In this document: positions 882-57,203 of the stretch, piece after piece
How positions within the stretch are numbered: the stretch's first letter is position 1
Layout: each line of letters begins with the position of its first letter
Assembly (NCBI GenBank): GCA_964540895.1
Contig: CAZIOP010000001.1
Location: 187,596 to 251,595 of the forward strand
Source of the DNA: an uncultured Gammaproteobacteria bacterium
GTDB lineage: Bacteria; Patescibacteriota; Patescibacteriia; Patescibacteriales; Patescibacteriaceae
Direction: 5' to 3'
Length of the DNA stretch: 64,000 bases
Notes under the pieces: generated by a model
Told to the model about the DNA's origin: nothing
Databases searched by the model: none
Seen by the model: the letters and a program-made list of their open reading frames with translations, nothing else
Translations under genes and position numbers: made by a program

Positions 882-909
882 TTGACTAGCTTTAGTGCTA
901 TGGTATGCT
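882..909 (+). promoter_or_regulatory. sigma70-like promoter TTGACT-16-TATGCT; the ATG of mnmA lies 6 nt downstream (leaderless-like)
   Basis: TTGACT at 882-887 and TATGCT at 904-909, then tcggat, then ATG at 916. Confidence 0.4.
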
Positions 910-915
910 TCGGAT

Positions 916-1989
916 ATGAAATTAGCTAAAAAAATCAGAGTAGTAGTTGGTTTGTCAGGCGGCGTTGATTCATCAGTCGCTGCTGCTTTGCTACTTAAAA
1001 AAGGCTATGAAGTGATTGGAGTTTTTATGAAAAATTGGAGTGAAGATGTCGGTGACTTCTGTTGTAGCTGGTCTGAAGATCTGGAAGATGCCAGACGAGT
1101 AGCTCAAACACTTGGAATTCGTTTTTATGTGTGGAACTTTGAGAAAGAATATAAAAAACAGGTTATTAGCTATTTCTTTAACGAATACCGAGCAGGAAGA
1201 ACTCCTAACCCTGATGTTATGTGTAATCGGGAGATTAAATTTAAATTATTTTTAGAAAAAGCATTACGCTTCGGAGCTGATTTTGTGGCTACTGGTCATT
1301 ATGCCAGGGTAAAAAAAGTTGGTGATAGTTTCAGATTATTAAAAGGAAAAGACAGTAATAAAGATCAAACGTATTTTTTATATACCTTAACTCAAAAAGA
1401 ATTACGTCATGCCCTGTTTCCCATCGGTGAATATAAGAAACCAGATGTTCGTATTTTAGCCAAGAAGTTTAATCTCCCAACTTTTGCCAAAAAAGATTCG
1501 CAAGGTATTTGTTTTATTGGTGAAGTTGATATTAAGGAATTACTACAACAACAAATTAAACCAAAAGCAGGACAGATTGTTGATACAGTTGGTAATATCT
1601 TAGGTAAACATGATGGCTTCCCATTCTACACGTTAGGGCAGAGAGGTGGTCTTGATGTGGGTGGTAAGGGACCTTATTATGTTGTGGCTAAAAACAAAAA
1701 AAAGAATCAGATTATTGTAAGTGATAACCCCAATGATCCGTTGTTATGGCGAAAAGAGTGTTTGATTACTGAGCTTAGTTGGACAAGAAGATTAGAAGTT
1801 CCTGAAAAATTAGAAGTAACTATCCGCTACCGTCATGCTACTGAAACTGCTAGTATTAGAGTTATAGCAAAGAATAAAGCTAGACTTATGTTTACTAATC
1901 CTCAACGAGCTATTACACCCGGCCAAGCAGCAGTTTTTTATATCAAAGATGAATTGATTGGCGGGGGAGTAATTGATGAAGTTATATGA
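916..1989 (+). CDS. mnmA: tRNA-specific 2-thiouridylase MnmA
   Basis: SGGVDSS PP-loop, CNREIKF and DSQGICFIG motifs. ATG at 916 preferred over the GTG at 895 reported in the ORF track. Confidence 0.93.
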   Translation: MKLAKKIRVVVGLSGGVDSSVAAALLLKKGYEVIGVFMKNWSEDVGDFCCSWSEDLEDARRVAQTLGIRFYVWNFEKEYKKQVISYFFNEYRAGRTPNPDVMCNREIKFKLFLEKALRFGADFVATGHYARVKKVGDSFRLLKGKDSNKDQTYFLYTLTQKELRHALFPIGEYKKPDVRILAKKFNLPTFAKKDSQGICFIGEVDIKELLQQQIKPKAGQIVDTVGNILGKHDGFPFYTLGQRGGLDVGGKGPYYVVAKNKKKNQIIVSDNPNDPLLWRKECLITELSWTRRLEVPEKLEVTIRYRHATETASIRVIAKNKARLMFTNPQRAITPGQAAVFYIKDELIGGGVIDEVI

Positions 1990-2531
1990 GACAAGAAATT
2001 GAAGTTAAGGTTAGAGTAGCTGATTTAGCTACTATTGCTTCTAAACTAGAGGCAAGTGGTTGTGTTTTGTCTGATCGTGCTTTACAAGAAGATGAAATTT
2101 TTGCGAATTTTACTCCGTTTGATGTTTTTGCAACTGGTAATACTATATTACGTATTAGAAAAAGTAATAATAAAATGCTGTTTACCGTAAAGAAAAGCCA
2201 AACTACTGATTTAGACTGCTTAGAAAGAGAGGTTGAGATAGAAAATGCCGAGGAAATGAAAGAAGCAATTTTGTTAATGGGATATTATGAAGCAGTTCGG
2301 GTAAAGAAGTATCGTCAAAAAACTCGTTATATGGATTATGAAATTTGTCTAGATGAAGTTGATAATCTTGGTTCATTTGTAGAAATTGAAAAAATTACCG
2401 AGAATGAAACTGCTGAAAAAGTTTTCAGTGAGTTATTAGAAATACTTAGGAGTTTCGGAATAAAAGAAGAAGATCGGGTGATACATGGCTATGATACATT
2501 GCTGTATAGAAAGCAAAAAGAGAAGAAATGA
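1986..2531 (+). CDS. CYTH-domain protein (class IV adenylate cyclase / triphosphatase family)
   Basis: N-terminal EIEVKVRV (ExExK) motif and about 180 aa length. ATGA overlap with the mnmA stop. Confidence 0.75.
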   Translation: MRQEIEVKVRVADLATIASKLEASGCVLSDRALQEDEIFANFTPFDVFATGNTILRIRKSNNKMLFTVKKSQTTDLDCLEREVEIENAEEMKEAILLMGYYEAVRVKKYRQKTRYMDYEICLDEVDNLGSFVEIEKITENETAEKVFSELLEILRSFGIKEEDRVIHGYDTLLYRKQKEKK

Positions 2532-2540
2532 TATTACATA

Positions 2541-3207: not shown

Positions 3208-4164
3208 TTATGTGTAGGTTAATAAAAATTTTTTAACAGTTGTTTCTACTTCTTCAATATTTTCTGTTTGCATTAAATCCATACGTAATTCTTTGGCACC
3301 ATCAAAGCCATTCGCATAGGCTTTGTAATGTTTTCGCATTATATGAAATGATTTGATGTTGCCCAGTAGTTCATTGAATAGTCGAGTATGTTCAAGCATA
3401 ACATCTAGTTTTTCTGGAACGGGAATATCTTCAACATGTTTATTGGGGTTAAATAACCATGGATTACCAAAGATTGCTCGACCAAGCATGATACCGCCAC
3501 AACCCGTCATTTCAGCTTTGGCACGAGCATCGTTTAAATCAATTACATCGCCATTACCAACAATGACCGTAGTTGTTCCTTTAGCAATATTAACTGCTTC
3601 GGCAACTGTGTTCCAGTTAGCTGGCACTTTGGACATTTCTTTACGAGTTCGAGCGTGAATGGTTATCATTGCTGGTTTTTCAGCTAAGAGTTCAGGCAAC
3701 CAAGTTGACAGAATATTCTTAGTATCACCAATTCTTGTTTTAACAGAAAGTGGAATTTTTGGTGCTCCGGCTTTGGCAGCTTTCATTAATTCACGGGCAA
3801 GAGATGGATTTTTAATTAAACAAGCACCAGCACCTTGTTTCATAACATTTTTGTCAGGACAACCCATATTAATATCAATGCCATCAAAACCCAACTCTTG
3901 AATTAATTGAGCTGCACCAAACATTTTTTCTGGATCAGCGGTAAAGAGTTGAGCAATCAGGGGTCGTTCACTTTCTGAATATAATAAATCAGGTAGTAAT
4001 CGATCTCGACCCACTGACATAAGACCATCAGCTGAAACAAATTCGGTGTACATGATATCTGGTTTGCCATATTTGGCAATCAGACGTCTGAACGCAGCGT
4101 CAGTAACGTTAGCTAAGGGTGCCATGACAAAGAATGGTTGTTTAAGATGATGAATGAAACACAT
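3208..4164 (-). CDS. dus: tRNA-dihydrouridine synthase
   Basis: APLANVTD, DINMGCP and HARTR motifs of the Dus TIM-barrel family. The true start may be the internal MAPL. Confidence 0.9.
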   Translation of the reverse strand: MCFIHHLKQPFFVMAPLANVTDAAFRRLIAKYGKPDIMYTEFVSADGLMSVGRDRLLPDLLYSESERPLIAQLFTADPEKMFGAAQLIQELGFDGIDINMGCPDKNVMKQGAGACLIKNPSLARELMKAAKAGAPKIPLSVKTRIGDTKNILSTWLPELLAEKPAMITIHARTRKEMSKVPANWNTVAEAVNIAKGTTTVIVGNGDVIDLNDARAKAEMTGCGGIMLGRAIFGNPWLFNPNKHVEDIPVPEKLDVMLEHTRLFNELLGNIKSFHIMRKHYKAYANGFDGAKELRMDLMQTENIEEVETTVKKFLLTYT

Positions 4165-4173
4165 GAAAGTTTT

Positions 4174-4740
4174 TTAAGTAAAGAGTGTTTTAGCACCGGT
4201 AATAAGAAGCCAAATGCCAATAGTGTTTAATACAAATGACAGAATAATAAAATGCCATTTTTTTATTTTGTACGCTGACAGCAAAGGAACACCAAGTTCA
4301 TCAGGTAGAGGAGAAGCAATAATCAAAGCGCCAATTACTGGTGTTAGCCAGAGAAAGTATTTGCTATGCAGTATATGACTGACTGGTGAATTGTTGAAAC
4401 GTTCTATTAATGGATCTAGTTCGGTGAAGACATGACCCTTGAAGAGGCTATAGATAATAAAATCTCCAATGACTGAACCAAGGCCAGCTAGGATTGCTAA
4501 CTCAACTAAGTTAAGTCGATCGGATAGATCATAAAGTACCAAGAGAGCAGGAGCAGCAGTGAAGGTCATGACTGAAAAGATTCCGGCTATGACTGCTCCA
4601 ATATAGCCCCATTCTCCAAGGCTGAGGAGAGCCAATTTAACTGTGTAATTTTGTGACAGGATAAAAAAGATCACCAAACTTAGCCCAAGTAAGGTCAGGT
4701 TTTTATAACGCCAATGAAAATGCTTTTTTTCAAACCACAT
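4174..4740 (-). CDS. polytopic membrane protein (DedA/VTT-like, tentative)
   Basis: 188-aa ORF with 4-5 hydrophobic segments. No catalytic motif recognised. Confidence 0.55.
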   Translation of the reverse strand: MWFEKKHFHWRYKNLTLLGLSLVIFFILSQNYTVKLALLSLGEWGYIGAVIAGIFSVMTFTAAPALLVLYDLSDRLNLVELAILAGLGSVIGDFIIYSLFKGHVFTELDPLIERFNNSPVSHILHSKYFLWLTPVIGALIIASPLPDELGVPLLSAYKIKKWHFIILSFVLNTIGIWLLITGAKTLFT

Positions 4741-4832
4741 ATGATAAGTATAGGTTTGAATGCTAAATTTTACAATTTTTACTAAAAAAATGACTAATAT
4801 TAGTTATTATAAAAGGATGAGATTAAATATAC

Positions 4833-4861
4833 TTGACAAAATATTGATAGTATGATATAGT
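4833..4861 (+). promoter_or_regulatory. promoter TTGACA-N14-TGA-TATAGT with no CDS downstream
   Basis: TTGACA at 4833-4838, 17-nt spacer ending in TGA, TATAGT at 4856-4861. Confidence 0.5.
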
Positions 4862-4867
4862 AGTAGA

Positions 4868-4993
4868 TTAAATTGCTCATTTAATTTAACAGAAACCAAC
4901 CTCGAGTATCCCTTCGAGACAACCCATCAACTAACCGCAGCTCGACATTTCTTTGAGAAGCTTCACATTACATATAATATGAGGCTTTTTTCT
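4868..4993 (+). ncRNA. candidate ~125-nt small RNA (promoter to terminator, no credible ORF)
   Basis: Hairpins attaaat-tgctc-atttaat and ctcga-gtatccct-tcgag, then a terminator aagcttca...tgaggctt plus T-run at 4958-4993. Confidence 0.3.
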
Positions 4994-5009
4994 TTGTCAG
5001 AATGAATTT

Positions 5010-5038
5010 TTGACTTTATTTGTAGAGAGTAGTAAAGT
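5010..5038 (+). promoter_or_regulatory. weaker promoter TTGACT-17-TAAAGT
   Basis: TTGACT at 5010-5015 and TAAAGT at 5033-5038. Confidence 0.35.
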
Positions 5039-5044
5039 GTTGTT

Positions 5045-5318
5045 CAAGAAGAAAAGTATAAGTTCTTTAGATATCTAATAATAGAAGCAAATGCTATGAC
5101 GACGTCTTTTTCTCAGCTAGTTCAGCTTAAAAGATCTGAAGCGGTTTAAACCACTAGCTTTGGTACCTTGCTTTTTAGAGCAACTACTTTTTTGATTGAA
5201 TAGAAAAATATTGGGTACAAACCGATAGTAGTAGTAACTTTGTTTCTATTTCCCGGGGAAATCCATATTATTTCATATATACATATGAATAGGATATGAA
5301 ATCGAACCGGGTTTTTTA
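5045..5318 (+). ncRNA. candidate ~270-nt structured RNA or attenuating leader upstream of dsbB
   Basis: Nested stems: agctagt(5114)...actagct(5158), the ggtttaaacc palindrome, atttcatat...atatgaaat. Ends in cccgg(5252)...ccggg(5311) plus T6, 37 nt before the dsbB ATG. Confidence 0.25.
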
Positions 5319-5354
5319 TTTGCCCAAAAAGGCTAGATACTATAAAATTTAGAT

Positions 5355-5765
5355 ATGAAAAGATATATCCAAGACTACGCTTTGCCGGTATGTTTAGTAA
5401 TTGCTATAGCTGGTTTATTAGGTAGTTTATACTTTAGCGAAGTTTTGCATTTTATTCCTTGTGTTCTTTGTTGGTATCAACGTATTTTGTTGTATCCGTT
5501 AGTGCCGTTATTTGCTATTGGTTTAGTTACCAGAGATCGTAATGTTTGGAAATATGGATTACTTTCAGTTATCATTAGTGCCGGAGTGGGCATCTATCAG
5601 TTGCTGCTTGTGTATGGAGTTATTAAAACATCGTCCTGTTTAGTGGGAATTTCATGTGCGGCTATTCAATGGTCGTTACTTGGTTTTATCACCATTCCGT
5701 TATTAGCTTTTCTAGAAGCCATTGTTATTTTAATATTATTATTACTGTATCGTAAATACGTATAA
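5355..5765 (+). CDS. dsbB: disulfide bond formation protein B (DsbB/BdbC family)
   Basis: Four TM segments, CVLCWYQR CxxC in the first loop, second Cys pair (SSCLVGISCAA). Confidence 0.85.
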   Translation: MKRYIQDYALPVCLVIAIAGLLGSLYFSEVLHFIPCVLCWYQRILLYPLVPLFAIGLVTRDRNVWKYGLLSVIISAGVGIYQLLLVYGVIKTSSCLVGISCAAIQWSLLGFITIPLLAFLEAIVILILLLLYRKYV

Positions 5766-5769
5766 CTCT

Positions 5770-6411
5770 ATGCCTAAAGAATATAAAATATTATTAGGAA
5801 TTGGTTTAGGAGCTATTATATTAGGACTTCTATTATTTAAATTTGCCGGTGCTCCTAAGCAATCAGCGCCAATTACTGATCGAGTTGGTGTTTATACTAA
5901 AGGTTCGGAAACGGCCGCCGTAACTTTAACTGAATTTGCTGATTTTCAATGCCCAGCTTGTCGTTCAGCTAATGATTTACCAGGTCAGATTTTGTCTAAT
6001 TATCCTAATGATGTAAGATTTGTCTTTCGTCACTTTCCTCTAACTAGCCATCCGTTTGCTAATGTTTCCGCCCTGGCAGCTGAAGCAGCAGGTGCTCAAG
6101 GAAAGTTTTGGGAAATGCATGATATGTTATATGACAAACAAGATGAGTGGGGTAATTTAGGTGCGCCTGTTTCTCGTGACAGAGTTATTGAATATTTTAA
6201 AAGTTATGCCGGGCAATTAGGAATAAATGTTGAAACATTTGCTAAGGCTATTGATACTAATGCTTTTATCACTGCTATTAACGAAGATATTTCAGCCGGT
6301 ACTGCTTCTGGGGTTAATGCCACCCCGACGTTTTTTGTAAATAATACTAAGATTAATGAACCTAGTTTTGCTGAGATTAAGAAGGAGATTGATAGGGTGT
6401 TAGGTAGATAA
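5770..6411 (+). CDS. DsbA-family thiol:disulfide oxidoreductase, membrane-anchored
   Basis: N-terminal TM, FADFQCPACR thioredoxin-fold CPxC, GVNATPTFFVN cis-Pro loop. Sits 4 nt after dsbB. Confidence 0.85.
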   Translation: MPKEYKILLGIGLGAIILGLLLFKFAGAPKQSAPITDRVGVYTKGSETAAVTLTEFADFQCPACRSANDLPGQILSNYPNDVRFVFRHFPLTSHPFANVSALAAEAAGAQGKFWEMHDMLYDKQDEWGNLGAPVSRDRVIEYFKSYAGQLGINVETFAKAIDTNAFITAINEDISAGTASGVNATPTFFVNNTKINEPSFAEIKKEIDRVLGR

Positions 6412-6427
6412 TTGTTATAAATAAAAC

Positions 6428-6453
6428 GACCCGTCATTATGGCGGGTCTTTTT
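6428..6453. terminator. bidirectional intrinsic terminator between convergent genes
   Basis: gacccg-tcattatgg-cgggtc, flanked by an A-run and a T-run. Confidence 0.6.
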
Positions 6454-6471
6454 AGTTTTTGATTATTTTAT

Positions 6472-7002
6472 TTAGGTGAGTTTTATCAGATCTTTTATTT
6501 CGACAACTTTGATATTACTCTGTTGCCAGGTGAATATTTCTCTTATTCTTTTTCTGAATAGGTATTCGATGTTGATTTTCTTTAAATCATCCAGAGTTAT
6601 CAACTCTTTTGTTAATTTTTGATCTGTGGGTGTGTTTGTATAAAGATATTTTAATTTACCCTTAACTATAAAACATTTATAGTTAGGGTTTGATCGTCCT
6701 CTGTATGCACCAACAGACTTAGGATAGAATATGCCCTTTCCATTAACGTGATGGGCAAAAATAATATCGTTATTTTGGGTAATAACAATACCAATTTTTG
6801 TCTCACATTGTGAATTGAAAGCAATTGTTTCGGCTTCTTTTAGAAAATTGTTAATTCTTCCACCTTCCCCATTTATTAAATGAGGAGTTTTGAAATAACC
6901 TTCAAGTTTTTTTTGTGGGTAAGGATAAACAGAGGTTGAATTATTGGCTCCTTCTCTATTTCCGTTTGTTTCTGTTTCAAAGTTTTTTTGACTCTGATTC
7001 AT
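6472..7002 (-). CDS. orphan hypothetical protein (176 aa) with a strong SD
   Basis: GAAGGAGGcgaaATG upstream on the minus strand. No family recognised. Confidence 0.6.
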   Translation of the reverse strand: MNQSQKNFETETNGNREGANNSTSVYPYPQKKLEGYFKTPHLINGEGGRINNFLKEAETIAFNSQCETKIGIVITQNNDIIFAHHVNGKGIFYPKSVGAYRGRSNPNYKCFIVKGKLKYLYTNTPTDQKLTKELITLDDLKKINIEYLFRKRIREIFTWQQSNIKVVEIKDLIKLT

Positions 7003-7063
7003 TTCGCCTCCTTCTTTTTTTAAAGTTTATTCAAAGATAGCAAATAATTCCTTAAAAATCAAG

Positions 7064-7573
7064 TTAGGAGGGAGCTGTTGTTTGGGTTGTTCGTTTCTTA
7101 CGGAAAAACCAAATACTATAACCAACAATAATAGCAATCCAATTAGGGAAAAAGATCCAAGGGTGACCCCAGGAAATGCCATCAAATTTGTAACTAAACA
7201 ATGGCCAGAGAAACGGTGTGGCAAAGAAAGCGGCGGAATGAGTAAAAATATCAAGTACTATATGGAAAGGCCAGGCCAATAACGGCATGAAAGGGCGTTT
7301 ACGTATTAGCCAGACAATACTAAATACTACTGCAAAAACAATGAGACTGTGGGTAATATTATAGAGTACATGAACATAGGTCGGGATATCAGCGTTAGTA
7401 GGTGCTTCTGACCAACTTACTTGTGTACCAATATTCAGCATATTAGCTATCATTAACAAACCAAATGACAACACATCAGGCAATACGCCAAACAGAAAAG
7501 ATAGCCAGTAGTATTTTTTACTGGTGCGACCAAAGGCTAGTCCGCCCCAGAGTCCATGAGAAACAACATCCAT
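7064..7573 (-). CDS. membrane-bound metal-dependent hydrolase (YdjM/DUF457-like)
   Basis: Starts MDVVSHGLWGG, with later HSL and DIFTHS His motifs. ATG at 7573 chosen so it does not overlap gpmA; the track start at 7663 is an extension. Confidence 0.6.
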   Translation of the reverse strand: MDVVSHGLWGGLAFGRTSKKYYWLSFLFGVLPDVLSFGLLMIANMLNIGTQVSWSEAPTNADIPTYVHVLYNITHSLIVFAVVFSIVWLIRKRPFMPLLAWPFHIVLDIFTHSAAFFATPFLWPLFSYKFDGISWGHPWIFFPNWIAIIVGYSIWFFRKKRTTQTTAPS

Positions 7574-7595
7574 TATTTTATGATATGATAGGAAG

Positions 7596-8285
7596 ATGAA
7601 ACAAGCAAATTTAGTATTACTTCGACACGGTGAGAGTATCTGGAACAAAAAAGGAATCTTCACTGGTTGGGTTGATATTGGTTTATCAAAGAAAGGAGAA
7701 ACAGAAGCTCGTCAGGCTGGACGATTGTTAAAACGTCGTGGCTATATATTTGATTGTGCCTATACTTCAGTTTTGAAACGAGCTATCAGAACCTTAGATT
7801 TAGTCTTGAAAGAAGCTCATATCTCTAAACTTCCAACAACTAAGACCTGGCGGTTAAACGAACGTCATTACGGAGCTTTGCAGGGTCAATCTAAAGCAGC
7901 CATTGAAAAAGAATTTGGTGTTAAACAATTTTTAGCTTGGCGAAGAGGGTATACTACAAGACCACCGTTACTGACTAAACCAATGAAGGGACAGTGTAGT
8001 CCTAAGGCTTGTGGGTTAACGTTGGACGAGTTTCCTCACGCTGAGTCATTACAAGATACCTATAAACGGGTAATTCCAGTCTGGAAAAAAGATATTCTAC
8101 CTGCTTTGAAAAAAGGAAACAATGTAATCATTTCAGCCCATGGTAATAGTTTACGAGCTTTAGTTAAGTATATAGATGGGATCAGTGATCAACAGATTAC
8201 TCGATTAGAGATTCCTACAGGTAAACCACTGTGCTATCAAATTTCTTCTAGAGGTGTTGTTCAGAAAAAATGGTATTTGAAATAA
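7596..8285 (+). CDS. gpmA: 2,3-bisphosphoglycerate-dependent phosphoglycerate mutase
   Basis: LVLLRHGESIWN catalytic-His motif, RLNERHYG, SAHGNSLRAL. TATGAT lies 6 nt before the ATG. Confidence 0.93.
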   Translation: MKQANLVLLRHGESIWNKKGIFTGWVDIGLSKKGETEARQAGRLLKRRGYIFDCAYTSVLKRAIRTLDLVLKEAHISKLPTTKTWRLNERHYGALQGQSKAAIEKEFGVKQFLAWRRGYTTRPPLLTKPMKGQCSPKACGLTLDEFPHAESLQDTYKRVIPVWKKDILPALKKGNNVIISAHGNSLRALVKYIDGISDQQITRLEIPTGKPLCYQISSRGVVQKKWYLK

Positions 8286-8376
8286 GGTGAGAAATGTTTG
8301 AAATTATTAACTAATTACTTAGTTAATAAAATCACGTATACTCTTTCCGCCAGTTGAAGTGGCCTTATCGTAAGAC

Positions 8377-8405
8377 TTGACAGAGTTCGTATTTTAAGAG
8401 ATAAT
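8377..8405 (+). promoter_or_regulatory. promoter TTGACA-17-GATAAT for rpmB
   Basis: TTGACA at 8377-8382 and GATAAT at 8400-8405. Confidence 0.55.
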
Positions 8406-8438
8406 GAGCCTATTGTTTAAATTTATAGAAAAGTATCT

Positions 8439-8675
8439 ATGTCCACACAATGCCAATTAACTGGAAAGAAAGCAACCAGCGGATTTAATAAAAGTCACTC
8501 TAATCGCCGAACTAAGCGTAAGTTTCGACCTAATTTGCAAGAGAAAAAAGTAGTTAACCCTAAAACTGGACGAACTATTAAATTAACTCTAAGCACTACT
8601 GCGTTAAAGACTTTAAAGAAATGGGATAAAGCTGGTAAAGTCTATGATCTAGCTGCTATTACTTCTAAGCGCTAA
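8439..8675 (+). CDS. rpmB: 50S ribosomal protein L28
   Basis: [34 protein letters not shown] is a typical L28 N-terminus. Confidence 0.93.
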
Positions 8676-8697
8676 CTTCCATACATTCTCTAACTAT

Positions 8698-8722
8698 AAA
8701 AGACACCAATTTGGTGTCTTTT
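8698..8722. terminator. bidirectional terminator between rpmB and the HTH gene
   Basis: aaaagacacc-aattt-ggtgtctttt. Confidence 0.7.
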
Positions 8723-8984
8723 AGTTTTTCCACTTATCCACATACTGACCTAGGCCAAAGTTAGTAAATTTATTTCTAAGCTTAGTATTTTTCAGTAACC
8801 AGATTATTAAGGTCATTAGATTAATTAGATATCGGTTACGAACAATCTTATAGGTAAGCATACCAGAACCAAGTCCACGGCGAATAGTTTTAGTTTGGAC
8901 TCCGCCAATTTTAGCAGCCTCTGAAACAGATAACCAAATTGGGCTGGTAACTTCACTCGGAGGTAGCTGATCAATGGTTTTCAT
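8721..8984 (-). CDS. helix-turn-helix DNA-binding protein (excisionase/MerR-like HTH_17 type)
   Basis: LSVSEAAKIGGVQTKTIRRGLGSGML helix-turn-helix segment; 87 aa. Confidence 0.65.
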   Translation of the reverse strand: MKTIDQLPPSEVTSPIWLSVSEAAKIGGVQTKTIRRGLGSGMLTYKIVRNRYLINLMTLIIWLLKNTKLRNKFTNFGLGQYVDKWKN

Positions 8985-8998
8985 AAAACCGATATTTA

Positions 8999-9138
8999 AG
9001 TCTACATTAAAGTAGACTAAAGTAAGAAAATATAAATAAACAAAGATGATTATAAGTCTACAAATTTGTAGACTTATATTGGTCTATATAGCTTGAAATA
9101 GAATTGAAAGAGTACTTAAGTCTAGATAGTATTAGACT
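8999..9138. promoter_or_regulatory. three operator-like inverted repeats AGTCTAC-N6-GTAGACT
   Basis: 8999-9018 (perfect half-sites); 9055-9074 (core of a perfect 26-bp palindrome at 9052-9077); 9119-9138 (AGTCTAg-N6-tTAGACT). The first lies 15 bp upstream of the HTH start codon. Confidence 0.6.
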
Positions 9139-9322
9139 TTTTGTTTATTTTTGCAAATATTTTTTAAAAAGGCAAGTAATTTTAGCTATTACTGTCTAAT
9201 AAGTATTCTAGATAAAAAGATTGGTGTTTATAAAATATATATAATATAAAAGTGTCCATACATAAACATGTTAGGTCTTGGAGTGAGATATATTGTTGAG
9301 TCCTTAAAATAAAGCTTATTCC

Positions 9323-9351
9323 TTGCCAGTTTCTTCAAGTTGTGGTATATT
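9323..9351 (+). promoter_or_regulatory. promoter TTGCCA-17-TATATT for the sigma-factor operon
   Basis: TTGCCA at 9323-9328 and TGgTATATT ending at 9351. Confidence 0.5.
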
Positions 9352-9435
9352 TTGAGGAATAATAGGCTTTATTGTAAGATAGGTTTATATTCTAAAAGGG
9401 TTTCTGTAACACTTTTATTTTTTTTACGTAATCTA

Positions 9436-39252: not shown

Positions 39253-39282
39253 ATTATTTAATAAATTTTTAATTATAAATGT

Positions 39283-39699
39283 ATGTCAGAAGAAGTAAAG
39301 AATGACGACGCAGAAGTCGTTGTCCCAGAAAAATTTCAGACTCTAGTAGCTGGTATTGAAAAAATGTCAGTCCTAGATTTAGCTGAATTAGTAAAGATCT
39401 TAGAAAAGAAATTTGGTGTGTCAGCTTCTGCCCCTGCTATGATGATGGCTGGTCCAGCTGCCGCTGCTGAAGCTGCTCCTGAAAAGGAAAGTTTTGACGT
39501 TGAGTTAACTGAAGCCGGTGGCAACAAGATTGCCGTTATTAAGGCTTTGCGTGAAGTTATGCCAGAACTTGGCTTGAAAGAAGCTAAGGATGTAGCTGAC
39601 GGCGCTCCAAAGGTAGTTAAGGAAGGTGTTAAAAAAGAAGACGCTGAAAAGATGAAAGCTAAATTAGAAGAAGCTGGTGGTAAAGTTACTTTGAAGTAA
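39283..39699 (+). CDS. rplL: 50S ribosomal protein L7/L12
   Basis: Ala-rich hinge ([12 protein letters not shown]) and C-terminal domain [26 protein letters not shown]. Confidence 0.95.
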
Positions 39700-42035: not shown

Positions 42036-42132
42036 AAGAAGGGGATTTCATTTGACGTCTATTCCATAATACTATACGATAAAAATCAATAAAAATCAAT
42101 GCTAATCTAAGCAGAGATTTTATACTTCCGTT

Positions 42133-46934: not shown

Positions 46935-47019
46935 TGTGAGTTAAAGATTCACAGATTTTCTGAAAGAGGATAGTAAATTAAAAATTTTAATAAAATAAAA
47001 AAATAAGGAGAAAACACTA

Positions 47020-48111: not shown

Positions 48112-48180
48112 TGTAAAAACTATTAAACAAGTAATTAATTAACTAATTCAAAAAATAAAAAAAGAAGGAGTAATACAATC

Positions 48181-48861
48181 ATGAGTAAAAACATGAAAAG
48201 AGGTTTAATTGTAACAGTAGTAGCTGGTTTTGTTATTTGCGCAGTTTTATTTTGGGTATTTGTCGGTAAGCAAGCCTTTAACTATGTTTCTGACAAAGTA
48301 AATTCAAAGAAAGTTGCACAGGTCGTTGAAAGTACAGACAAAACAGATCAGAATATTATTCAGCCTCAGACGCAGATACAAACACAAAGCCCGGATCAAC
48401 AAACAACAGGTAATTCAGCCGGACAAACTTCCACTATTTCCTCAACAACAGGAATTGACATTTTTACCCAGGGGAAGGATTTTATTTTCGATAATGGTGA
48501 AGAAGGATATAATTTCAGAATTAAAGAAAATGAGTTATTGCCTCAAATGGTCGGTGATCTTGGAATAACTGTTGACGGAAAGCGTTTCATAAAAACCAGT
48601 ATACTGAACAGATTCAGGCCTGCCGGAAATGCAACTGTTATTAAGTGTCTTGGTAAAGGTATTGTTGACAAAAATAACAAGTGGCCTCGCGTAGATACCA
48701 AAGTTGAAGGCGAATATACTTATTATCAATGTCCTTTAAGCTGGAAAAACGGCTACTGTTTGTTCAATTTTGCCTATTTTACCGATAAGGGGAAATCTAC
48801 AGAGCGTTATATTGCACATGAAATTGCAGAAAAATATCCACATTCGGAAGATATTATGTAA
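48181..48861 (+). CDS. membrane-anchored or secreted hypothetical protein (226 aa), strong SD
   Basis: gaaggagtaatacaatcATG. N-terminal TM GLIVTVVAGFVICAVLFWVFV, then a Gln/Thr-rich linker. Confidence 0.65.
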   Translation: MSKNMKRGLIVTVVAGFVICAVLFWVFVGKQAFNYVSDKVNSKKVAQVVESTDKTDQNIIQPQTQIQTQSPDQQTTGNSAGQTSTISSTTGIDIFTQGKDFIFDNGEEGYNFRIKENELLPQMVGDLGITVDGKRFIKTSILNRFRPAGNATVIKCLGKGIVDKNNKWPRVDTKVEGEYTYYQCPLSWKNGYCLFNFAYFTDKGKSTERYIAHEIAEKYPHSEDIM

Positions 48862-49432: not shown

Positions 49433-49461
49433 TTGACTTTTTCCTAATTTTAGGGCATATT
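49433..49461 (+). promoter_or_regulatory. promoter TTGACT-17-CATATT; ATG lies 6 nt downstream (leaderless-like)
   Basis: TTGACT at 49433-49438, CATATT at 49456-49461, ATG at 49468. Confidence 0.45.
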
Positions 49462-49467
49462 ATCAGT

Positions 49468-50868
49468 ATGAGTATCTTTCCTGATCAATCCTTGCGAGGT
49501 CTGTTTATAGGTTTTTTTACAGTTCTGGCACTAGCTTTGTTGGCTATATTTTCCTACAGCACTCATGGAGGAGTTATTACTATTGCCGGTCTTTTATTGT
49601 TAGTAGTATTTTGTTTAAATTTAGAGATTGGTTTATATCTAACGATTTTCGCCTTACCAGTTATCAACTGGAATATTTATCTTAAAGGCTTGATTATTCC
49701 CGGAAGTGATTTATTTGGATTATTATTGTTAACGGCTTTTATTGGCCGTTTTATTTTTTTTAAACTTTTTCCATCTAATCAAATTAAAGAAAAAATTACT
49801 AAGATTCGTTTGCCGTTTATTTTGCCATTTATCTGCTTCTTCGTAGTCGCTGTTATATCGAGTTTATTAAGTAAAGAACCCGGTGACGCTGTTTGGTATA
49901 CAGTTCGATGGATATTATTCTTTTATACAGCTTTTGTAGTGATACCAGTTAATATTATTACTGATGAGAAAATTTTAAAGAGATCATTATGGTCGTTTGT
50001 GTTATCAGCTAGTATCATAGCTTTAATGGGTGCCTACTCACTTTTTCTTCAAGATTGGCAGCATACGTTTGTTAGAGTCCAGCCAGTTCAAATGTTTAAC
50101 ATGTACCCAGTAGGGGAAAATCAGAATTTAATTGCTGAGTTTTTAGTTATTGGGGTATTTTTCGCCATTGCTTTAAAATTCCTGTCACGCGATATAATGA
50201 CCAGAAAATTATTAACATTAACAGCGTTACTTTTAATTTTTATTTCTGTATTAACATTTTCAAGAGCTGCTTGGATTGTTTTGTTTATTCAGATATTATT
50301 ATATATTTGGTATCAAACCAGAATTTCTCGAAAACAGTATATAGTCATTCTATTTATAGGTTTCATTTTACTGGCTCCTCTGGGAGTATACATGTATAGA
50401 ATTCAACATGAGTTTAGGATTGGTATTAGTTCGACCAGGAATCGAGTAGCGTTAACACAAATTGCTTGGGAAAATTTTCTTGAAAAACCAGTATTTGGAC
50501 ATGGAAGTGGGACATTTATTAGTTTGGTTGAAGATAATATTCGTTTCCGAGCTCAGTACGGAGATCCGCTTGATTCACATGGTATTTGGCAGAAAGTTTT
50601 AGCTGAAAATGGAGCCTTGGGAATAATAACTTTTATAGTATTTTTAGGTTCAATGTTTATGATGTTTTGGAAACGCATTGTTCAATTATATAAGAAAGGT
50701 AAGAATAATGTTTTTCTGCCAATTGTGTTAGGGGCGTGTGGTGGATTATTCTTTCAATTTTTTAATACTTCTTACTACAAAGGTAAGGTGTGGTTACCGT
50801 TGGGTATAGCAGTGGCTACCTGGTATATAGTTAATCAAAAACAACATGACGAAATCAAAACGGCTTAG
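49468..50868 (+). CDS. O-antigen ligase family (Wzy_C domain) polytopic membrane protein
   Basis: About 12 TM segments. FSRAAWIVLF and FGHGSGTF motifs typical of Wzy_C/WaaL/PglL-type enzymes. ATG at 49468; the track start at 49399 spans the terminator. Confidence 0.8.
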   Translation: MSIFPDQSLRGLFIGFFTVLALALLAIFSYSTHGGVITIAGLLLLVVFCLNLEIGLYLTIFALPVINWNIYLKGLIIPGSDLFGLLLLTAFIGRFIFFKLFPSNQIKEKITKIRLPFILPFICFFVVAVISSLLSKEPGDAVWYTVRWILFFYTAFVVIPVNIITDEKILKRSLWSFVLSASIIALMGAYSLFLQDWQHTFVRVQPVQMFNMYPVGENQNLIAEFLVIGVFFAIALKFLSRDIMTRKLLTLTALLLIFISVLTFSRAAWIVLFIQILLYIWYQTRISRKQYIVILFIGFILLAPLGVYMYRIQHEFRIGISSTRNRVALTQIAWENFLEKPVFGHGSGTFISLVEDNIRFRAQYGDPLDSHGIWQKVLAENGALGIITFIVFLGSMFMMFWKRIVQLYKKGKNNVFLPIVLGACGGLFFQFFNTSYYKGKVWLPLGIAVATWYIVNQKQHDEIKTA

Positions 50869-54735: not shown

Positions 54736-54758
54736 TTATTTATTCATTATTATAAATT

Positions 54759-55922
54759 ATGAAGATTGCTTTTATCGGACAAAAAGGAATTCCTTCAACT
54801 GGAGGTGGAGTTGAAAAACATGTGGAAGAATTAGCTGTGTCATTAGTAGCTAAAGGCCACAGTGTTTTAGCCTATACAAGACCCCATTATACCGATAAAC
54901 AGCTACGAACATATAGAGGTGTATCATTAATAAGTTTACCAAGTATTAGTTTAAAGAACCTTGATGCTATTTCCCATACCTTTTTTGCCATTATTGATTT
55001 AATAAAGCACGATGTTGATATCGTTCACTTCCATGGTATTGGGCCATCTTCATTACTGTGGTTGGCTAGAATTGTTAAACCACGAGCTCGGATTATTGGT
55101 ACATTCCACTGCCAGGATTATTATCACAAGAAATGGAGTTGGTTTGCTCGAACATATTTAAAATTTGGTGAATGGGTATTATGTACTAAGGCTGACACAA
55201 CAATTGCTGTATCCCATTCATTGGCCCATTATGCAGATTTAACTTACGGAAAGTCAGTTACGTATATACCAAATGGAGTTTATCCATCTGATTTCTTGGA
55301 AGCCAAAGAAATAACAAAATGGGGATTACAAAAAGGTAATTATATTTTGGCTGTTTCTCGATTAATTCCTCATAAAGGTTTACATCATTTGATAAAGGCT
55401 TTTAAATCAGTACAGACTGATAAGAGATTAGTAATTGTTGGTGATGGTTCATATACTGATTTATATATTAACGAATTACATAAATTAGCCGCTTCTGATG
55501 ATCGTGTAATCATGACTGGTGCTCAAACTGGAGTTGCTCTACAAGAACTGTTTAGTAATGCCTTCTTGTTTGTTCAACCATCTGAGTCAGAAGGATTATC
55601 AATTGCTTTACTTGAAGCAATGTCTTTTGCTTGCCCAGTCTTAGTTAGTGATATTCCTGAAAATTTAGAGGCAGCAGGTAATGCTGGGTCATCTTTTATC
55701 TGTAATAATGTAGATGATTTATCTAGTAAGTTACAAGAATTAGTTACAAGTGATGAATTAACAGCTATGGGTAGTGCTGGTCAAGAACGTGTTGCTAAAG
55801 AATATAATTGGCTACATATCACTAAAGCAACAGAAAATGTATATGAAGATCAGTTAGCTTCTCAAGTGGAAAAGCAATTAAAGCATGTACAAACACTGAG
55901 CCGTTTTTCAACTTTTGTGTAA
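54759..55922 (+). CDS. glycosyltransferase family 4 (GT-B, group 1)
   Basis: MKIAFIGQKGIPSTGGGVEKHV and SESEGLSIALLEAMSFACPVLVSD motifs. Confidence 0.88.
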   Translation: MKIAFIGQKGIPSTGGGVEKHVEELAVSLVAKGHSVLAYTRPHYTDKQLRTYRGVSLISLPSISLKNLDAISHTFFAIIDLIKHDVDIVHFHGIGPSSLLWLARIVKPRARIIGTFHCQDYYHKKWSWFARTYLKFGEWVLCTKADTTIAVSHSLAHYADLTYGKSVTYIPNGVYPSDFLEAKEITKWGLQKGNYILAVSRLIPHKGLHHLIKAFKSVQTDKRLVIVGDGSYTDLYINELHKLAASDDRVIMTGAQTGVALQELFSNAFLFVQPSESEGLSIALLEAMSFACPVLVSDIPENLEAAGNAGSSFICNNVDDLSSKLQELVTSDELTAMGSAGQERVAKEYNWLHITKATENVYEDQLASQVEKQLKHVQTLSRFSTFV

Positions 55923-56036
55923 GAGTATTTTTTGCTCTCGTTTTATATGAGAGTGAGCTAATGGGCTTACCCAGAAATATTTACATTAAAAAAATTCATA
56001 AATTAAAAACCCCTAAAATAGGGGAAGGAGACAGTA

Positions 56037-57203
56037 ATGATTCAGCAAAAGATATTTTATCTTGTTTTACTTTTTTGCTCTGTTTTAATAATAAACGGAT
56101 GTGAAAACACTTATGACCCTGTTGGTTCAACACCGATAACAAACACTGATCAAGTGCATGCGGTTATTGGATTAAATGATAATCCTTTCGGACCTGACAG
56201 GGTTGATTCGGTATTAACTAACCGATTGACAGTAATATCAAGTCTTTTCTCCACGGGGAATATTGTAAGAAGAGAATGGAGGGTATATCGCTTAAGAACC
56301 GGATTGTTAATTCAAACCGATACGGTTACATTTTTATCACCAACTTTTTTAGCCCAAGATACGTTGGTCTATAAATTAAAAGTTTTTGGAAATAACGGTT
56401 CTGTCGATTCAGCGAAATTAACATTACGCATTTTAAATTCTTTCGGAGTTGGATCTTCTGGAGATATTTCTCTCTATAGCTATGGGAGTGGTGAATATAA
56501 ACTCTTGCTTCCTTATGGAAGAATTGATCTGCAGATCCTCACAAATCCAAAATCAGTTGGTACCCACACCGGATGGAATAATCCAATGCCGTTGACGGAT
56601 TCTGTTGTTGGCAGAGGCTACTTACTTCCACTGACAGTTGCTTCTCAGACGATTGTCGAATTTAACTATTTTGCTGGACAGAATATTTGGAGCATGGCAC
56701 AAGGAAGTCTTTATAAGACTCCTGGATCAGCTAATACATATTCTGTTAAATTCATAAACGGTAGTATATACCCAATTAATGGTGGGCCAGCAGTAATTGT
56801 ACCCGGAAGATTCGGAGATACTGTGGCTAGATATGACGCTACTGTAGATTCATTAATTATTTATCCTAACCATCTTTGGATTCCGATACCAATCGGAACA
56901 CCGTGGATAGAAATGAATCTTTATTCATTTGTGCCAAAACATCAGTCAGTATATGGAAATACCGATTACGGTCGTATAGCGGTACCAATATCATTGGTTC
57001 GTTCTTATCAGAATCAAATAAAATATCGTTTCGGCGGTAATTTGGTAGCAGATATGACTCATTCACCTATATATAACTCAGGTTATCTTGTCTTTCAGTT
57101 TGTGAGTCCGCGACCCATAAACGATCCGTGGCAGGTTGGCGATAAAGTAAAGGTTATAGGACCAAGTGGTCAAATTGAAGAAATCATTATAAAAAGCAGC
57201 TAA
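56037..57203 (+). CDS. predicted lipoprotein (lipobox-like IINGC), unknown function, strong SD
   Basis: gaaggagacagtaATG. MIQQKIFYLVLLFCSVLIINGC signal ending in Cys. No family recognised. Confidence 0.65.
   Translation: MIQQKIFYLVLLFCSVLIINGCENTYDPVGSTPITNTDQVHAVIGLNDNPFGPDRVDSVLTNRLTVISSLFSTGNIVRREWRVYRLRTGLLIQTDTVTFLSPTFLAQDTLVYKLKVFGNNGSVDSAKLTLRILNSFGVGSSGDISLYSYGSGEYKLLLPYGRIDLQILTNPKSVGTHTGWNNPMPLTDSVVGRGYLLPLTVASQTIVEFNYFAGQNIWSMAQGSLYKTPGSANTYSVKFINGSIYPINGGPAVIVPGRFGDTVARYDATVDSLIIYPNHLWIPIPIGTPWIEMNLYSFVPKHQSVYGNTDYGRIAVPISLVRSYQNQIKYRFGGNLVADMTHSPIYNSGYLVFQFVSPRPINDPWQVGDKVKVIGPSGQIEEIIIKSS

Follow-up and report, generated by a model that had tools for sequence, protein, structure and literature searches.

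In Flavobacteria, bS21-controlled occlusion of the anti-Shine-Dalgarno (anti-SD) sequence has reportedly been described. Among Parcubacteria, the presence of bS21 is variable and about half of the 16S rRNA genes are without the CCTCCT motif (PMC9297842), and in E. coli quadruplet pairing of U(−1) with A37 has been shown experimentally (PMC10018350). The window studied here, a stretch of 64,000 nucleotides, comes, to judge from its encoded proteins, from a Patescibacteria (CPR) bacterium that has a small genome and stands close to Ca. Falkowbacteria: Ca. Falkowbacteria and Parcubacteria are the top named matches of its L10 protein, and other window proteins match the Pfam families DUF5667 and DUF5663. 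About 200 kb of clade DNA was examined, and the window was pooled with six relatives to give 170 genes (150 SD-less and 20 SD-led). Start codons were assigned by ORF logic and N-terminal conservation, those of the window being curated by eye and the gene calls of the relatives coming from automatic predictors. Anti-SD duplex energies were computed against ACCUCCUUU.

The duplex energies of the 63 curated long-gene starts of the window fell into two classes. Nine starts lay at or below −8 kcal/mol (−8.2 to −13), a level reached by 1.3% of random 20-mers and by 1.4% of the in-frame ATGs inside genes (binomial p = 1e-7); none lay at −8 to −7 kcal/mol, and 50 were weaker than −5 kcal/mol. Anti-SD complementarity of the SD-less starts was below background (median +0.55 versus −1.5, p = 3e-5). 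The same metric applied to 65 annotated genes of E. coli K-12 gave one peak (median −6.4; 89% at or below −4; 23% at or below −8), in contrast to the bimodal distribution of the window. An earlier sequence-only reading of this DNA had proposed two initiation regimes and SD scoring for bimodality; the presence of two regimes in one genome was confirmed, and they differ in more respects than that reading saw, although its description of the backbone genes as leaderless was overstated. On balance, the clade probably uses two distinct start-site grammars, an SD-less U(−1)-AUG default and a minor SD-led class.

All ten SD motifs listed in that reading were found, with GGAG 5–10 nt from the start codon. 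On the reverse strand, GAAGGAGG (7007–7014) lies 4 nt before ATG 7002 (dG −12.2 kcal/mol) of ORF 6472–7002, whose 176-aa product has no family match; AAAGGAGG (23146–23153) lies 4 nt before ATG 23141 (−13.0) of ORF 22722–23141 (UVR139, 139 aa), which has a UVR motif only; and TAAGGAGG (30047–30054) stands ahead of ATG 30041 (−11.1) of ORF 29163–30041, encoding 292 aa with a signal peptide. On the forward strand, AAAGGAGG (24421–24428) and GAAGGAGG (24508–24515) precede the micro-ORFs 24437–24454 (MLFGH and stop) and 24524–24565 (MMTSNRIGHLFGH and stop), respectively. The site AAAGGAGAG (25007–25015; −9.3), which follows an A-tract and a small hairpin (24989–25005), is found ahead of ATG 25020 of ORF 25020–26717, a 565-aa protein with a signal peptide and a T9SS type-A sorting domain, the L004 orthologue of which has the weaker SD AGGAAGGA (−6.4). 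AAAGGAG (26957–26963; −8.4) is located ahead of ATG 26970 of a second ORF with a signal peptide and a T9SS sorting domain (26970–28679, 569 aa). Within the Wzz/O-antigen-ligase cluster, TAAGGAG (47004–47010; −8.2) lies 9 nt before TTG 47020 of hyp363 (47020–48111, 363 aa, signal peptide). GAAGGAG is present twice, at 48164–48170 (−8.8), 10 nt before ATG 48181 of hyp226 (48181–48861, 226 aa, N-terminal TM anchor), and at 56024–56030 (−9.4), adjoined by a hairpin at 56010–56024 and 6 nt before ATG 56037 of ORF 56037–57203 (388 aa, lipoprotein-like signal). One SD-like site was found beyond these ten, GGGAGG (31824–31829, forward strand; −11.5), 4 nt before GTG 31834 of a putative, doubtful 112-aa ORF, for which Logan contig L001 has a gene call.

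The SD-led ORFs had been described as orphans, secreted proteins or micro-ORFs, and rightly so: the only family matches were the two T9SS C-terminal sorting domains and the UVR motif, and an N-terminal signal peptide, lipobox or TM anchor was present in six or seven of the 9 long ORFs. SD-led genes usually have A at −1 and carry an A-tract ahead of the SD. For a given gene, the presence or absence of an SD is conserved among orthologues. The SD and TTG/GTG start of hyp363 are kept in six genomes (orthologues in L006, L008, L010, L048 and L049), the SD of hyp226 in three to four (L008 and L010 retain it, and in L049 it is weakened to AAGAGG), and that of a fatty-acid desaturase between L011 and L012. 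Such conservation suggests that the SD sites are selectively maintained, and the 16S rRNA should therefore still carry CCUCC. Indirect support for a working anti-SD comes from the coding sequences, where GAGG, AGGA, AGGT, GGAGG and GAGGT were among the most depleted words relative to synonymous shuffles, with no such depletion of composition-matched control words. Since CCTCCT is missing from about half of the Parcubacteria 16S genes, an intact anti-SD would here be deduced rather than seen.

Conservation of the SD gene by gene is also compatible with a separate expression channel, and the SD-led genes may be viewed as a candidate translational regulon, with output set by free anti-SD in the ribosome pool on the model of the flavobacterial occlusion; surface proteins would then be switched on and off together. 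The window SD-led genes are mostly secreted or surface proteins, L015 has a pilin-like SD-led protein, the leaders share the same build (A-tract, then SD) and bS21 varies among Parcubacteria, all of which would fit. This reading is nevertheless unlikely, as the SD-led set of the relatives also includes cytoplasmic enzymes (a radical SAM enzyme as well as the desaturase), the enrichment in hydrophobic N-termini was not significant over the window and ten other CPR loci (14/27 versus 76/217, p = 0.095), and several secreted proteins are without SD (htrA, CBM834, hyp435, hyp144 and the 1298-aa LTD protein of L010).

Acquisition from an SD-using donor had also been proposed. The SD-led genes would then be passive relics of recent transfer, with the donor ribosome-binding site retained and no special role, and Ignavibacteria or other FCB bacteria, the source of T9SS-type sorting domains, are example donors. 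The composition of the two classes gave a divided answer, synonymous codon fit being lower in SD-led genes (0.079 versus 0.158, p = 0.0017) but GC and GC3 not differing. In their C-terminal domains the T9SS proteins share about 50% identity with proteins of Ignavibacteria and Bacteroidota; however, outside homologues were found only for this 75-aa domain, the 5′ 80% and the leaders being orphan, and a sampled Ignavibacteriales contig had weak GAGG-type sites only. The island occupied by both T9SS ORFs, the 292-aa ORF and the micro-ORFs is replaced in L013 by an SPFH gene and a pair of ABC-transporter genes, L013 also lacks UVR139, and the desaturase and radical SAM enzyme of the relatives are accessory enzymes atypical of CPR. 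Against this, the SDs of hyp363 and hyp226 persist despite diverged flanking bases, orthologues of two SD-led genes retain the SD across relatives with L10 63–89% identical, an SD arises de novo in the L049 orthologue of hyp144, and SD-like words are counter-selected within coding sequences, so that the host ribosome would appear to read them. As a general explanation a passive relic is thus improbable and not supported, most SD genes being nonetheless variable accessory genes.

The 59 SD-less gene starts of the window (246–63202, irrespective of strand) use ATG only, with T at −1 in an A/U-rich, unstructured context, as exemplified by mutM (34958), rplJ (38728), rplL (39283), rpmB (8439), ftsI (59540) and murF (61655). 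The earlier claim that the backbone genes are without SD was borne out in every relative compared and at every plausible alternative start, of which as many as six were considered per gene over the initial 70 codons. The nearest approaches were the DUF4153 gene (−6.9, within its own promoter spacer) and rsmH and CYTH, with GGAG 16–17 nt upstream. The T(−1) signature of these starts is a new observation. It was found in 126/150 SD-less and 5/20 SD-led genes (Fisher p = 1.5e-7), and non-ATG starts in 2/150 and 7/20 (p = 3e-6), ATG being used almost exclusively without SD and TTG or GTG accounting for the seven; these pooled p-values are inflated because the loci are orthologous and not independent samples, the window being significant by itself. 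The frequency of T(−1) was 81% in the window and 86% in the relatives, as compared with 27–38% for background T before ATG and 38% at intergenic ATGs. In the orthologues of mutM, rplJ, rplL, hyp757 and HTH205, T(−1) was invariant and the adjacent bases variable. Start regions of both classes were unstructured (MFE −3.4 kcal/mol, as against −6.9 in internal 50-mers; p = 1e-23). Avoidance of TATG inside coding sequences was mild (7%, z = −3.8), which counts against a U(−1) grammar.

The six spacings between a −10-like hexamer and ATG quoted in the sequence-only reading are correct. Such hexamers by themselves were not enriched at 5–10 nt in this AT-rich DNA (15/86 versus 15% background, p = 0.32). 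Bipartite −35/−10 matches (at least 9 of 12 bases) numbered 8 at 5–10 nt versus 1.4 expected (P = 1e-4) and 12 at 20–40 nt versus 4.9 expected (P = 0.005). Bipartite promoters in leaderless geometry were found for about six to eight genes, but many SD-less genes are operon-internal or have apparent leaders of about 20–80 nt. The forward-strand cases include TTGACT-16-TATGCT-6-ATG of mnmA (882–918, ATG 916), a sigma-70-type promoter; TTGACA-17-TAGGAT-8-ATG of the DUF4153 gene (30164–30203, ATG 30201); and TTGACT-17-CATATT-6-ATG of the O-antigen-ligase-like gene (49433–49470, ATG 49468), with TTGACT-17-TATAAT-7-ATG in its L010 orthologue. TATAAT-6-ATG (35821–35835, forward), within the mutM 3′ end region, precedes a 403-aa secreted protein (ATG 35833), and its orthologues in L006, L048 and L049 have TATAAT 6–11 nt before ATG. 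A gap of only 22 nt (7574–7595) separates the divergent starts of gpmA (7596, forward; TATGAT-6-ATG) and a 169-aa membrane ORF (7573, reverse), and leaders there should therefore be very short or absent. TATACT-6-ATG (42121–42135, forward) belongs to the HTH-domain gene (ATG 42133), which in relatives is second in an operon and without the TATACT box.

Extending this geometry to all SD-less genes, with an own promoter abutting each ATG and T(−1)A(+1) reflecting the preference of transcription initiation for a pyrimidine/purine step, would agree with the bipartite enrichment at 5–10 nt, with divergent start codons 22–64 nt apart and with a −10 box conserved 6–11 nt before the hyp435 and DUF212 orthologues. 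It is very unlikely, however, since T(−1) was as frequent in the 46 operon-internal SD-less genes of seven loci, with gaps below 40 nt (87%), as in operon-first genes (83%), and a −10-like box lay at 5–10 nt in just 4 of 43 operon-internal genes, a near-identical set. Moreover, the top promoter matches of SD-less cspA, mraZ, the sigma factor, CBM834, hyp277 and DUF5663 were 30–85 nt upstream, and leaders of about 23–78 nt would follow, provided that those promoters are active; rplJ has a conserved long leader; and the DUF4153 promoter TTGACA-17-TAGGAT is conserved in L013, but 29 nt from ATG instead of 8 nt. An artefact of wrong start codons, AT-rich intergenic DNA or start picking, for which by-eye curation and the ability of automatic predictors to learn upstream composition might speak, is scarcely credible and already largely refuted by the missing SD at alternative starts, by T(−1) at 84% in the 49 window genes that start at the 5′-most start codon of the ORF and are therefore free of start choice, by starts fixed through N-terminal conservation (Fpg MPELPE, L10 MPKSKQQKQ, L12 MSEEVKND), by the low value at intergenic ATGs and by the E. 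coli control, which behaved as expected with the same script.

According to the two-grammar reading, the default would serve about 85–90% of genes, ribosomal, cell-division and housekeeping genes among them, without SD pairing, its start being an AUG in an unstructured A/U-rich stretch with U at −1. It would cover apparently leaderless genes (−10 box 6–10 nt upstream), presumed short-leader genes and operon-internal genes alike. The 30S or 70S ribosome may be placed directly on the open AUG, and a fourth base pair of U(−1) with A37 of the initiator tRNA may stabilise this placement; U(−1) could also exert its effect by another route than pairing with A37. The minor grammar, in about 12% of genes, would consist of an A-tract, AAGGAG(G) and 5–10 nt to the start, read by canonical SD:anti-SD pairing, with A usual at −1 and UUG or GUG tolerated, and would for the most part mark accessory genes, among them those for secreted or surface proteins specific to the lineage. 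The clade would thereby offer a clear natural case of two modes of start-codon finding within one cell. In E. coli T(−1) is present at 14% of starts, and it is far commoner in the SD-less genes described here.

The window, of 64 kb and 35–37% GC, carries about 70 genes and two tRNAs. Annotation of all its ORFs with Pfam bore out the backbone gene set of the sequence-only reading, which comprises sodA, mnmA, dus, dsbB/dsbA, gpmA, rpmB, an ECF-type sigma factor, hup, cspA, an ABC pair, htrA, pfkB, mutM, mltG, rplJ, rplL, Wzz, an O-antigen-ligase-like gene, three GT4 genes, mraZ, rsmH, an ftsL-like gene, ftsI, murF and a pterin dehydratase gene. The Pfam families DUF5667 and DUF5663 also match window proteins. 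The L10 protein had 1,406 homologues, the nearest being metagenomic proteins and the best named ones belonging to Ca. Falkowbacteria and Parcubacteria. One window protein was 100% identical to a protein on a 637,630-bp NCBI contig, and the same gene order was found in three Logan assemblies from independent runs (SRR8893621, -22 and -23), from which it follows that the DNA belongs to a real small Patescibacteria genome and is no chimera. The syntenic relatives used for comparison were the loci L006 and L013 (both from GCA_035438725.1), L007, L008, L010 and L004, together with L048 (673-kb contig) and L049 (347-kb contig); their L10 identity to the window ranged from 63% to 89%, and the clade sample examined came to about 200 kb in all. 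The genes rplJ–rplL were located after mltG, and not after rplK–rplA, in the window (37532–39699) as well as in L006, L008, L010, L048 and L049. Loss of the anti-Shine–Dalgarno sequence in Parcubacteria has been reported to track loss of uL1, which bears on this gene context.

All ten Shine–Dalgarno (SD) motifs read earlier from the sequence were found at their starts, with 5–10 nt between GGAG and the start codon, and an eleventh was located at 31834 (GGGAGG-4-GTG) ahead of a doubtful 112-aa ORF. The eleven sites are purine-rich with a GGAGG core, show duplex energies of −8.2 to −13.0 kcal/mol against ACCUCCUUU, and all keep the 5–10 nt distance, within the range of about 4–10 nt expected of an SD. 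For each of 63 curated window starts, the 20 upstream nucleotides were scored by their ViennaRNA duplex energy with ACCUCCUUU. Nine starts scored −8.2 to −13.0 kcal/mol and four between −7 and −5, the interval from −8 to −7 was empty, and the other 50 were weaker than −5. In three of the four intermediate cases the motif was misplaced, being situated within the promoter spacer of the DUF4153 gene (30201) or 16–17 nt upstream of rsmH and CYTH. Strong SDs (−8 kcal/mol or below) thus precede 14% of the starts versus 1.3% for random 20-mers and 1.4% for in-frame ATGs inside genes (binomial p = 1e-7), and the anti-SD complementarity of the SD-less starts was below background (p = 3e-5). No alternative in-frame start, among up to six per gene within the first 70 codons, supplied an SD to any backbone gene. 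The identical script applied to 65 annotated genes of E. coli K-12 gave a single peak with a median of −6.4 and 89% of the genes at or below −4; this annotated region was taken in place of actinomycete loci found via a DUF4153 search, which, at 72% GC, defeat naive ORF calling and so were unfit as a control. The two initiation regimes claimed for the window are therefore confirmed by the anti-SD energies, which split the 63 starts cleanly and are unimodal in E. coli, and the bimodality is real and no threshold effect.

Seven of the nine long SD-led ORFs received no function from Pfam or NCBIfam. A TTG at 50918 preceded by CCGGAGGCG was rejected as a further SD-led start, since the apparent SD falls within the conserved GT4 'GGAE' motif. 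Two hairpins adjoin SDs, namely GTCTCT-AAAAA-AGAGAC (24989–25005, +) at T9SS565, the secreted-protein ORF starting at 25020, and CCCCT-AAAAT-AGGGG (56010–56024, +) at the lipoprotein-like gene at 56037; these might be standby-site or processing structures.

The SD-less starts carry a signature of their own. T occupied position −1, the base just 5′ of the start codon, in most SD-less genes (window, 81% of 54; relatives, 86% of 91), as compared with 27% before all ATGs, 38% before intergenic ATGs and 37% before in-frame internal ATGs (binomial p = 7e-17 and 7e-32 versus the backgrounds). The corresponding values were 14% in E. coli (65 starts), 31–33% in two Dojkabacteria loci and 2–7% in the actinomycete loci. 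An artefact of start picking was ruled out, because the 49 window genes that start at the 5′-most start codon of any kind in their ORF, where no choice existed, showed 84% T(−1) and used ATG in 49 of 49 cases. An effect of the transcription start was likewise dismissed, T(−1) being found in 83% of operon-first genes and 87% of operon-internal genes (less than 40 nt from the preceding gene). Where the N-terminal sequence settles the position of the start, as in the orthologues of Fpg (MPELPE), L10 (MPKSKQQKQ), L12 (MSEEVKND), the 757-aa protein hyp757 (MSYKVAPLTVNP) and the HTH205 protein (MLAKLFGSTARVKILK), T(−1) was invariant across up to six genomes, with the neighbouring bases varying. The tetramer TATG was mildly depleted in coding sequences (z = −3.8), AATG, CATG and GATG being not.

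When the window and six relatives were pooled (170 genes; 150 SD-less and 20 SD-led), T(−1) was present in 126/150 SD-less versus 5/20 SD-led genes (Fisher p = 1.5e-7), and non-ATG starts in 2/150 versus 7/20 (p = 3e-6). The SD-led genes had A(−1) in 13 of 20 cases and a highly A-rich tract at about −30 to −12. RNA structure around the starts was weak in both classes, with a 50-nt MFE of −3.4 versus −6.9 kcal/mol for internal coding windows. Upstream of the gene for the conserved protein hyp757 (39762–42035), a conserved promoter-like box TATAGTATTATGG was observed (42036–42080, −), which recurs in L006, L008, L010, L048 and L049; in four of the six genomes it is followed by a C/U-rich CCTTCYT directly 5′ of the ATG, resembling the anti-SD and not an SD.

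The SD state is a conserved property of each gene. Apart from a sporadic exception for pfkB in L006, none of the syntenic relatives had an SD at the backbone genes htrA, pfkB, mutM, hyp435 (35833), DUF212, mltG, rplJ, rplL, hyp757, HTH205, Wzz, the GT4s and the O-ligase-like gene, nor L004 at its atp operon. Conversely, hyp363 (47020), a signal-peptide protein gene downstream of Wzz, showed an SD and a non-ATG start in six of six genomes (TTG in five and GTG in one). The SD of its neighbour hyp226 (48181) was present in 3–4 genomes, as AAGGAG in L008 and L010 and as AAGAGG in L049. The gene after that, at 48940, has an A-rich, SD-less upstream region in four genomes and AAAGGAG in L049. Proteins with a type IX secretion (T9SS) domain had an SD or SD-like motif in the window (two genes), L049 (−8.1) and L004 (−6.4). 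When eleven CPR loci were scanned in a start-agnostic way, 5–17% of the genes per locus had a strong SD, as an upper bound; SD-led genes in the CPR loci included a fatty-acid desaturase (SD conserved in both L011 and L012), a radical-SAM enzyme and a pilin-like protein. An 'envelope regulon', sought in the eleven CPR loci through N-terminal hydrophobicity, was not significant (p = 0.095).

The 64-kb window contains no rRNA, a 16S signature was found in none of the 48 fetched loci, and a scan of viral contigs with AAGTCGTAACAAGGTA recovered unrelated bacterial or eukaryotic rRNA fragments only. Initiator tRNA was likewise absent from the window and from 13 clade loci. In Parcubacteria just 48% of 16S genes carry CCTCCT (Tsurumaki et al. 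2022, PMC9297842). The coding sequences of the clade (150 kb) were compared with synonymous shuffles for depletion of SD-like words. GAGG, AGGA and AGGT were within the ten most depleted of 256 tetramers, and among 1,023 pentamers GAGGT ranked 11th and GGAGG 22nd; no depletion was shown by the composition-matched controls GGTGG, GGCGG, AGCAG and GCAGG. This depletion, together with canonical, well-spaced and conserved SD motifs, indirectly favours an intact anti-SD in the 16S rRNA of the clade.

The sequence-only reading had described the backbone as SD-less or leaderless, with −10-like hexamers at leaderless spacing before several of its genes, six of them listed. The six hexamer-to-ATG spacings are as written, and for three of them, at mnmA (916), DUF4153 (30201) and the O-ligase-like gene (49468), a good −35 element was found at 16–17 nt. 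In this AT-rich DNA, −10-like hexamers alone showed no significant positional enrichment, and for this reason a bipartite test, with a match of at least 9 of 12 −35/−10 bases, took over. Bipartite matches were enriched both 5–10 nt from the ATG (8 observed versus 1.4 expected, P = 1e-4) and 20–40 nt from it (12 versus 4.9, P = 0.005). Leaderless geometry, with a −10 box about 6–10 nt 5′ of the start codon and a matching −35, is exemplified by mnmA, DUF4153, the O-ligase-like gene, hyp188, dsbB and sodA. At the O-ligase-like gene of L010, TTGACT-17-TATAAT-7-ATG was found again; TATAAT lies 6–11 nt 5′ of the hyp435 orthologues in four genomes, and CATAnT 8–10 nt 5′ of the DUF212 orthologues. The start codons of gpmA (7596, +) and of a divergent 169-aa membrane ORF (7064–7573, −) are 22 nt apart, so that the promoter of each must sit inside the other gene.

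Against leaderless initiation as a general regime, the strongest promoter matches (at least 10/12) are located 30–85 nt 5′ of the SD-less genes DUF5663, hyp277, CBM834, mraZ, sigma factor and cspA, and many SD-less genes are internal to operons. The TTGACA-17-TAGGAT promoter of DUF4153 is conserved at 8 nt from the ATG in the window and 29 nt in L013, and rplJ has a long, conserved leader. Leaderless geometry is consequently supported for about 6–8 window genes and not for the backbone as a whole, and the SD-less class seems to be a mixture of these leaderless or near-leaderless genes with genes that would have SD-less leaders and operon-internal genes. In the 170 nt 5′ of rplJ (38558–38727, +), a conserved AAGGTCGCAGTTTTTT element was observed, which is also present in L008 and L010. 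This region, which scored below the Rfam gathering threshold, is probably an L10-leader-like autoregulatory RNA.

For the SD-led genes, acquisition from an SD-using donor had been put forward as one of two explanations. Their synonymous codon fit was lower than that of the SD-less genes (p = 0.0017), and most of them are part of a flexible gene pool. T9SS565/569 (25020 and 26970), hyp292 (30041, −) and UVR139 (23141, −) are variably present among the relatives; hyp363 and hyp226 are syntenic in 4–6 of them. UVR139 and the neighbouring glyoxalase gene are absent from L013. A variable island (24636–30041), delimited by a 54-aa membrane gene and DUF4153, holds micro-ORFs, T9SS565/569 and hyp292 in the window, and in its L013 counterpart (3725–9615) their place is taken by a pair of ABC-transporter genes, one SPFH/band-7 gene and a gene of 205 aa that has AAAAGGAGG and TTG. 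T9SS565 had one full-length homologue only, all other matches covering the C-terminal sorting domain alone (about 75 aa, about 50% identity), with the named ones mostly from Ignavibacteria and Bacteroidota. The base composition of the two classes was alike, GC being 0.357 in SD-led versus 0.372 in SD-less genes and GC3 0.293 versus 0.280 (not significant). One Ignavibacteriales contig, sampled as a possible donor type, showed only weak GAGG-type sites and no T(−1) bias, which says little about a donor either way. Since the SDs are kept over long divergence, and can even be gained, a passive donor relic is not the general explanation.

Two tandem micro-ORFs (24437–24454 and 24524–24565, +) are situated between the cspA terminator and a bidirectional terminator and are absent from L013. 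They encode MLFGH and MMTSNRIGHLFGH, each with an AAGGAGG SD and each ending in LFGH and a stop codon. Three of the four LFGH codons differ (TTG TTC GGA CAT versus CTT TTT GGT CAT), which points to conservation at the peptide level. Por_Secre_tail, the C-terminal sorting domain of T9SS type A that typifies Bacteroidota and the other FCB groups, was observed in these CPR at 25020–26717 and 26970–28679 (+), and in L004 (10001–11641) and L049 (10989–12269). Its identity to proteins from Ignavibacteria and Bacteroidota is about 50%; the remainder of each protein is an orphan. The signal peptides of the SD-led proteins end in AQ, GQ, EQ or SQ, resembling the Bacteroidetes 'Q-rule'.

Two sequence grammars are thus shown to exist, to be statistically separate and to be conserved per gene. 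This much of the two-regime interpretation holds, and neither a generally leaderless backbone nor a passive donor relic as the general explanation is supported. Leaderless mRNAs in general strictly need AUG. The SD-less starts are probably recognized directly on open, A/U-rich RNA, and accuracy would come from an obligatory AUG and a fourth base pair, of U(−1) with A37 of the initiator tRNA. Such an interaction has been demonstrated in E. coli by compensatory tRNA mutations (PMC10018350). The SD-led starts would use ordinary SD:anti-SD anchoring, tolerant of UUG, GUG and A(−1). Retention of the SDs could allow surface proteins to be expressed strongly or tuned separately, or could reflect the portability of SD sites on genes moving between genomes. 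As a tentative proposal, to which we give somewhat less than an even chance, the default signal in this Falkowbacteria-related CPR clade would be a four-base 'UAUG', recognized on unstructured mRNA by the anticodon and A37 of the initiator tRNA, and the SD pathway would persist solely as a second route alongside it, used by a conserved minority of genes that are mostly surface or accessory ones. If true, the clade would be a living intermediate toward the complete anti-SD loss reported in other Parcubacteria, and may explain how some of these could afford that loss.

The main interest of the data lies in the U(−1)/AUG-only grammar and in the per-gene conservation of SD and UUG across a clade sample of about 200 kb. 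Gene finders that expect an SD may mis-set CPR starts, and start calls in this part of the tree would gain from a rule of 'ATG after T, no SD' with a small class of SD-led starts beside it. A lineage in which U(−1) is near-obligatory would also be a strong test bed for quadruplet start recognition, the effect of which is small in E. coli. A per-gene SD, often with UUG, on surface proteins suggests control of the surface repertoire of the episymbiont at the level of translation.

Apart from the anti-SD note in PMC9297842, searches of the literature brought up no account of how CPR use SDs, of their leaderless mRNAs or of their start context. The clade resembles the Bacteroidetes/FCB type (GeneMarkS-2 group B; Flavobacterium johnsoniae, Baez et al. 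2019, PMC6847099) in that most genes, operon-first and internal, are SD-less (150/170 in the window and six relatives), in its A/U-rich unstructured initiation regions and in strong SDs on a few genes. The Bacteroidetes signal, however, is A at −3, −6, −12 and −13, whereas in the clade A(−3) is unenriched (39% in the window, 27% in the relatives) and T(−1) is dominant; the promoters are TTGACA-17-TATAAT-like and not of the Bacteroidetes type, and the organism is a CPR bacterium by its L10 homologues and not a member of Bacteroidota/FCB. With GeneMarkS-2 group C (Actinobacteria and Deinococcus-Thermus; PMC6028130) the clade shares a Pribnow box 6–10 nt 5′ of some operon-first ATGs, a second, SD-bearing gene class and AUG-only starts in the leaderless class. 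Internal and leadered genes of group C generally use an SD, whereas those of the clade, including the apparently leadered ones, are SD-less, and SDs are limited to about 12% of the genes, specific accessory or secreted ones.

Haloferax volcanii combines mostly leaderless mRNAs with SD-less 5′ UTRs and a minority of SD motifs, the SDs being reported as dispensable at 5′ UTRs (PMC3986360). The presence of leaderless, SD-less leadered and SD-bearing genes within one genome is common to both, but Haloferax is an archaeon with another promoter and initiation apparatus, and for the clade conservation argues that the SDs function. Besides U(−1):A37 pairing, no other published mechanism predicting a transcription-independent preference for U at −1 was found. 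Earlier work on extended codon–anticodon pairing was reportedly done by Ganoza and by Esposito. In quadruplet U(−1):A37 tRNAfMet pairing (Hollerer and Jeschek 2023, PMC10018350), U just 5′ of the start likewise favours initiation; in E. coli, where 14% of 65 starts have it, this is a small boost, whereas in the clade T(−1) is confined to the SD-less class and there comes close to being obligatory (84%).

The anti-SD-lacking Parcubacteria (Tsurumaki et al. 2022, PMC9297842) are similar in being CPR with reduced ribosomes and little reliance on the SD, and rplJ without preceding rplK–rplA in the clade is a further likeness. The clade differs from them in keeping conserved canonical SDs (about 12% of genes) and avoiding SD-like words in coding sequences, which argues that its anti-SD is still present, and may represent an intermediate state relative to them. 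The pattern is therefore none of the Bacteroidetes type, group C or the anti-SD-less Parcubacteria; features of each recur in it, together with a U(−1) signal of unusual strength.
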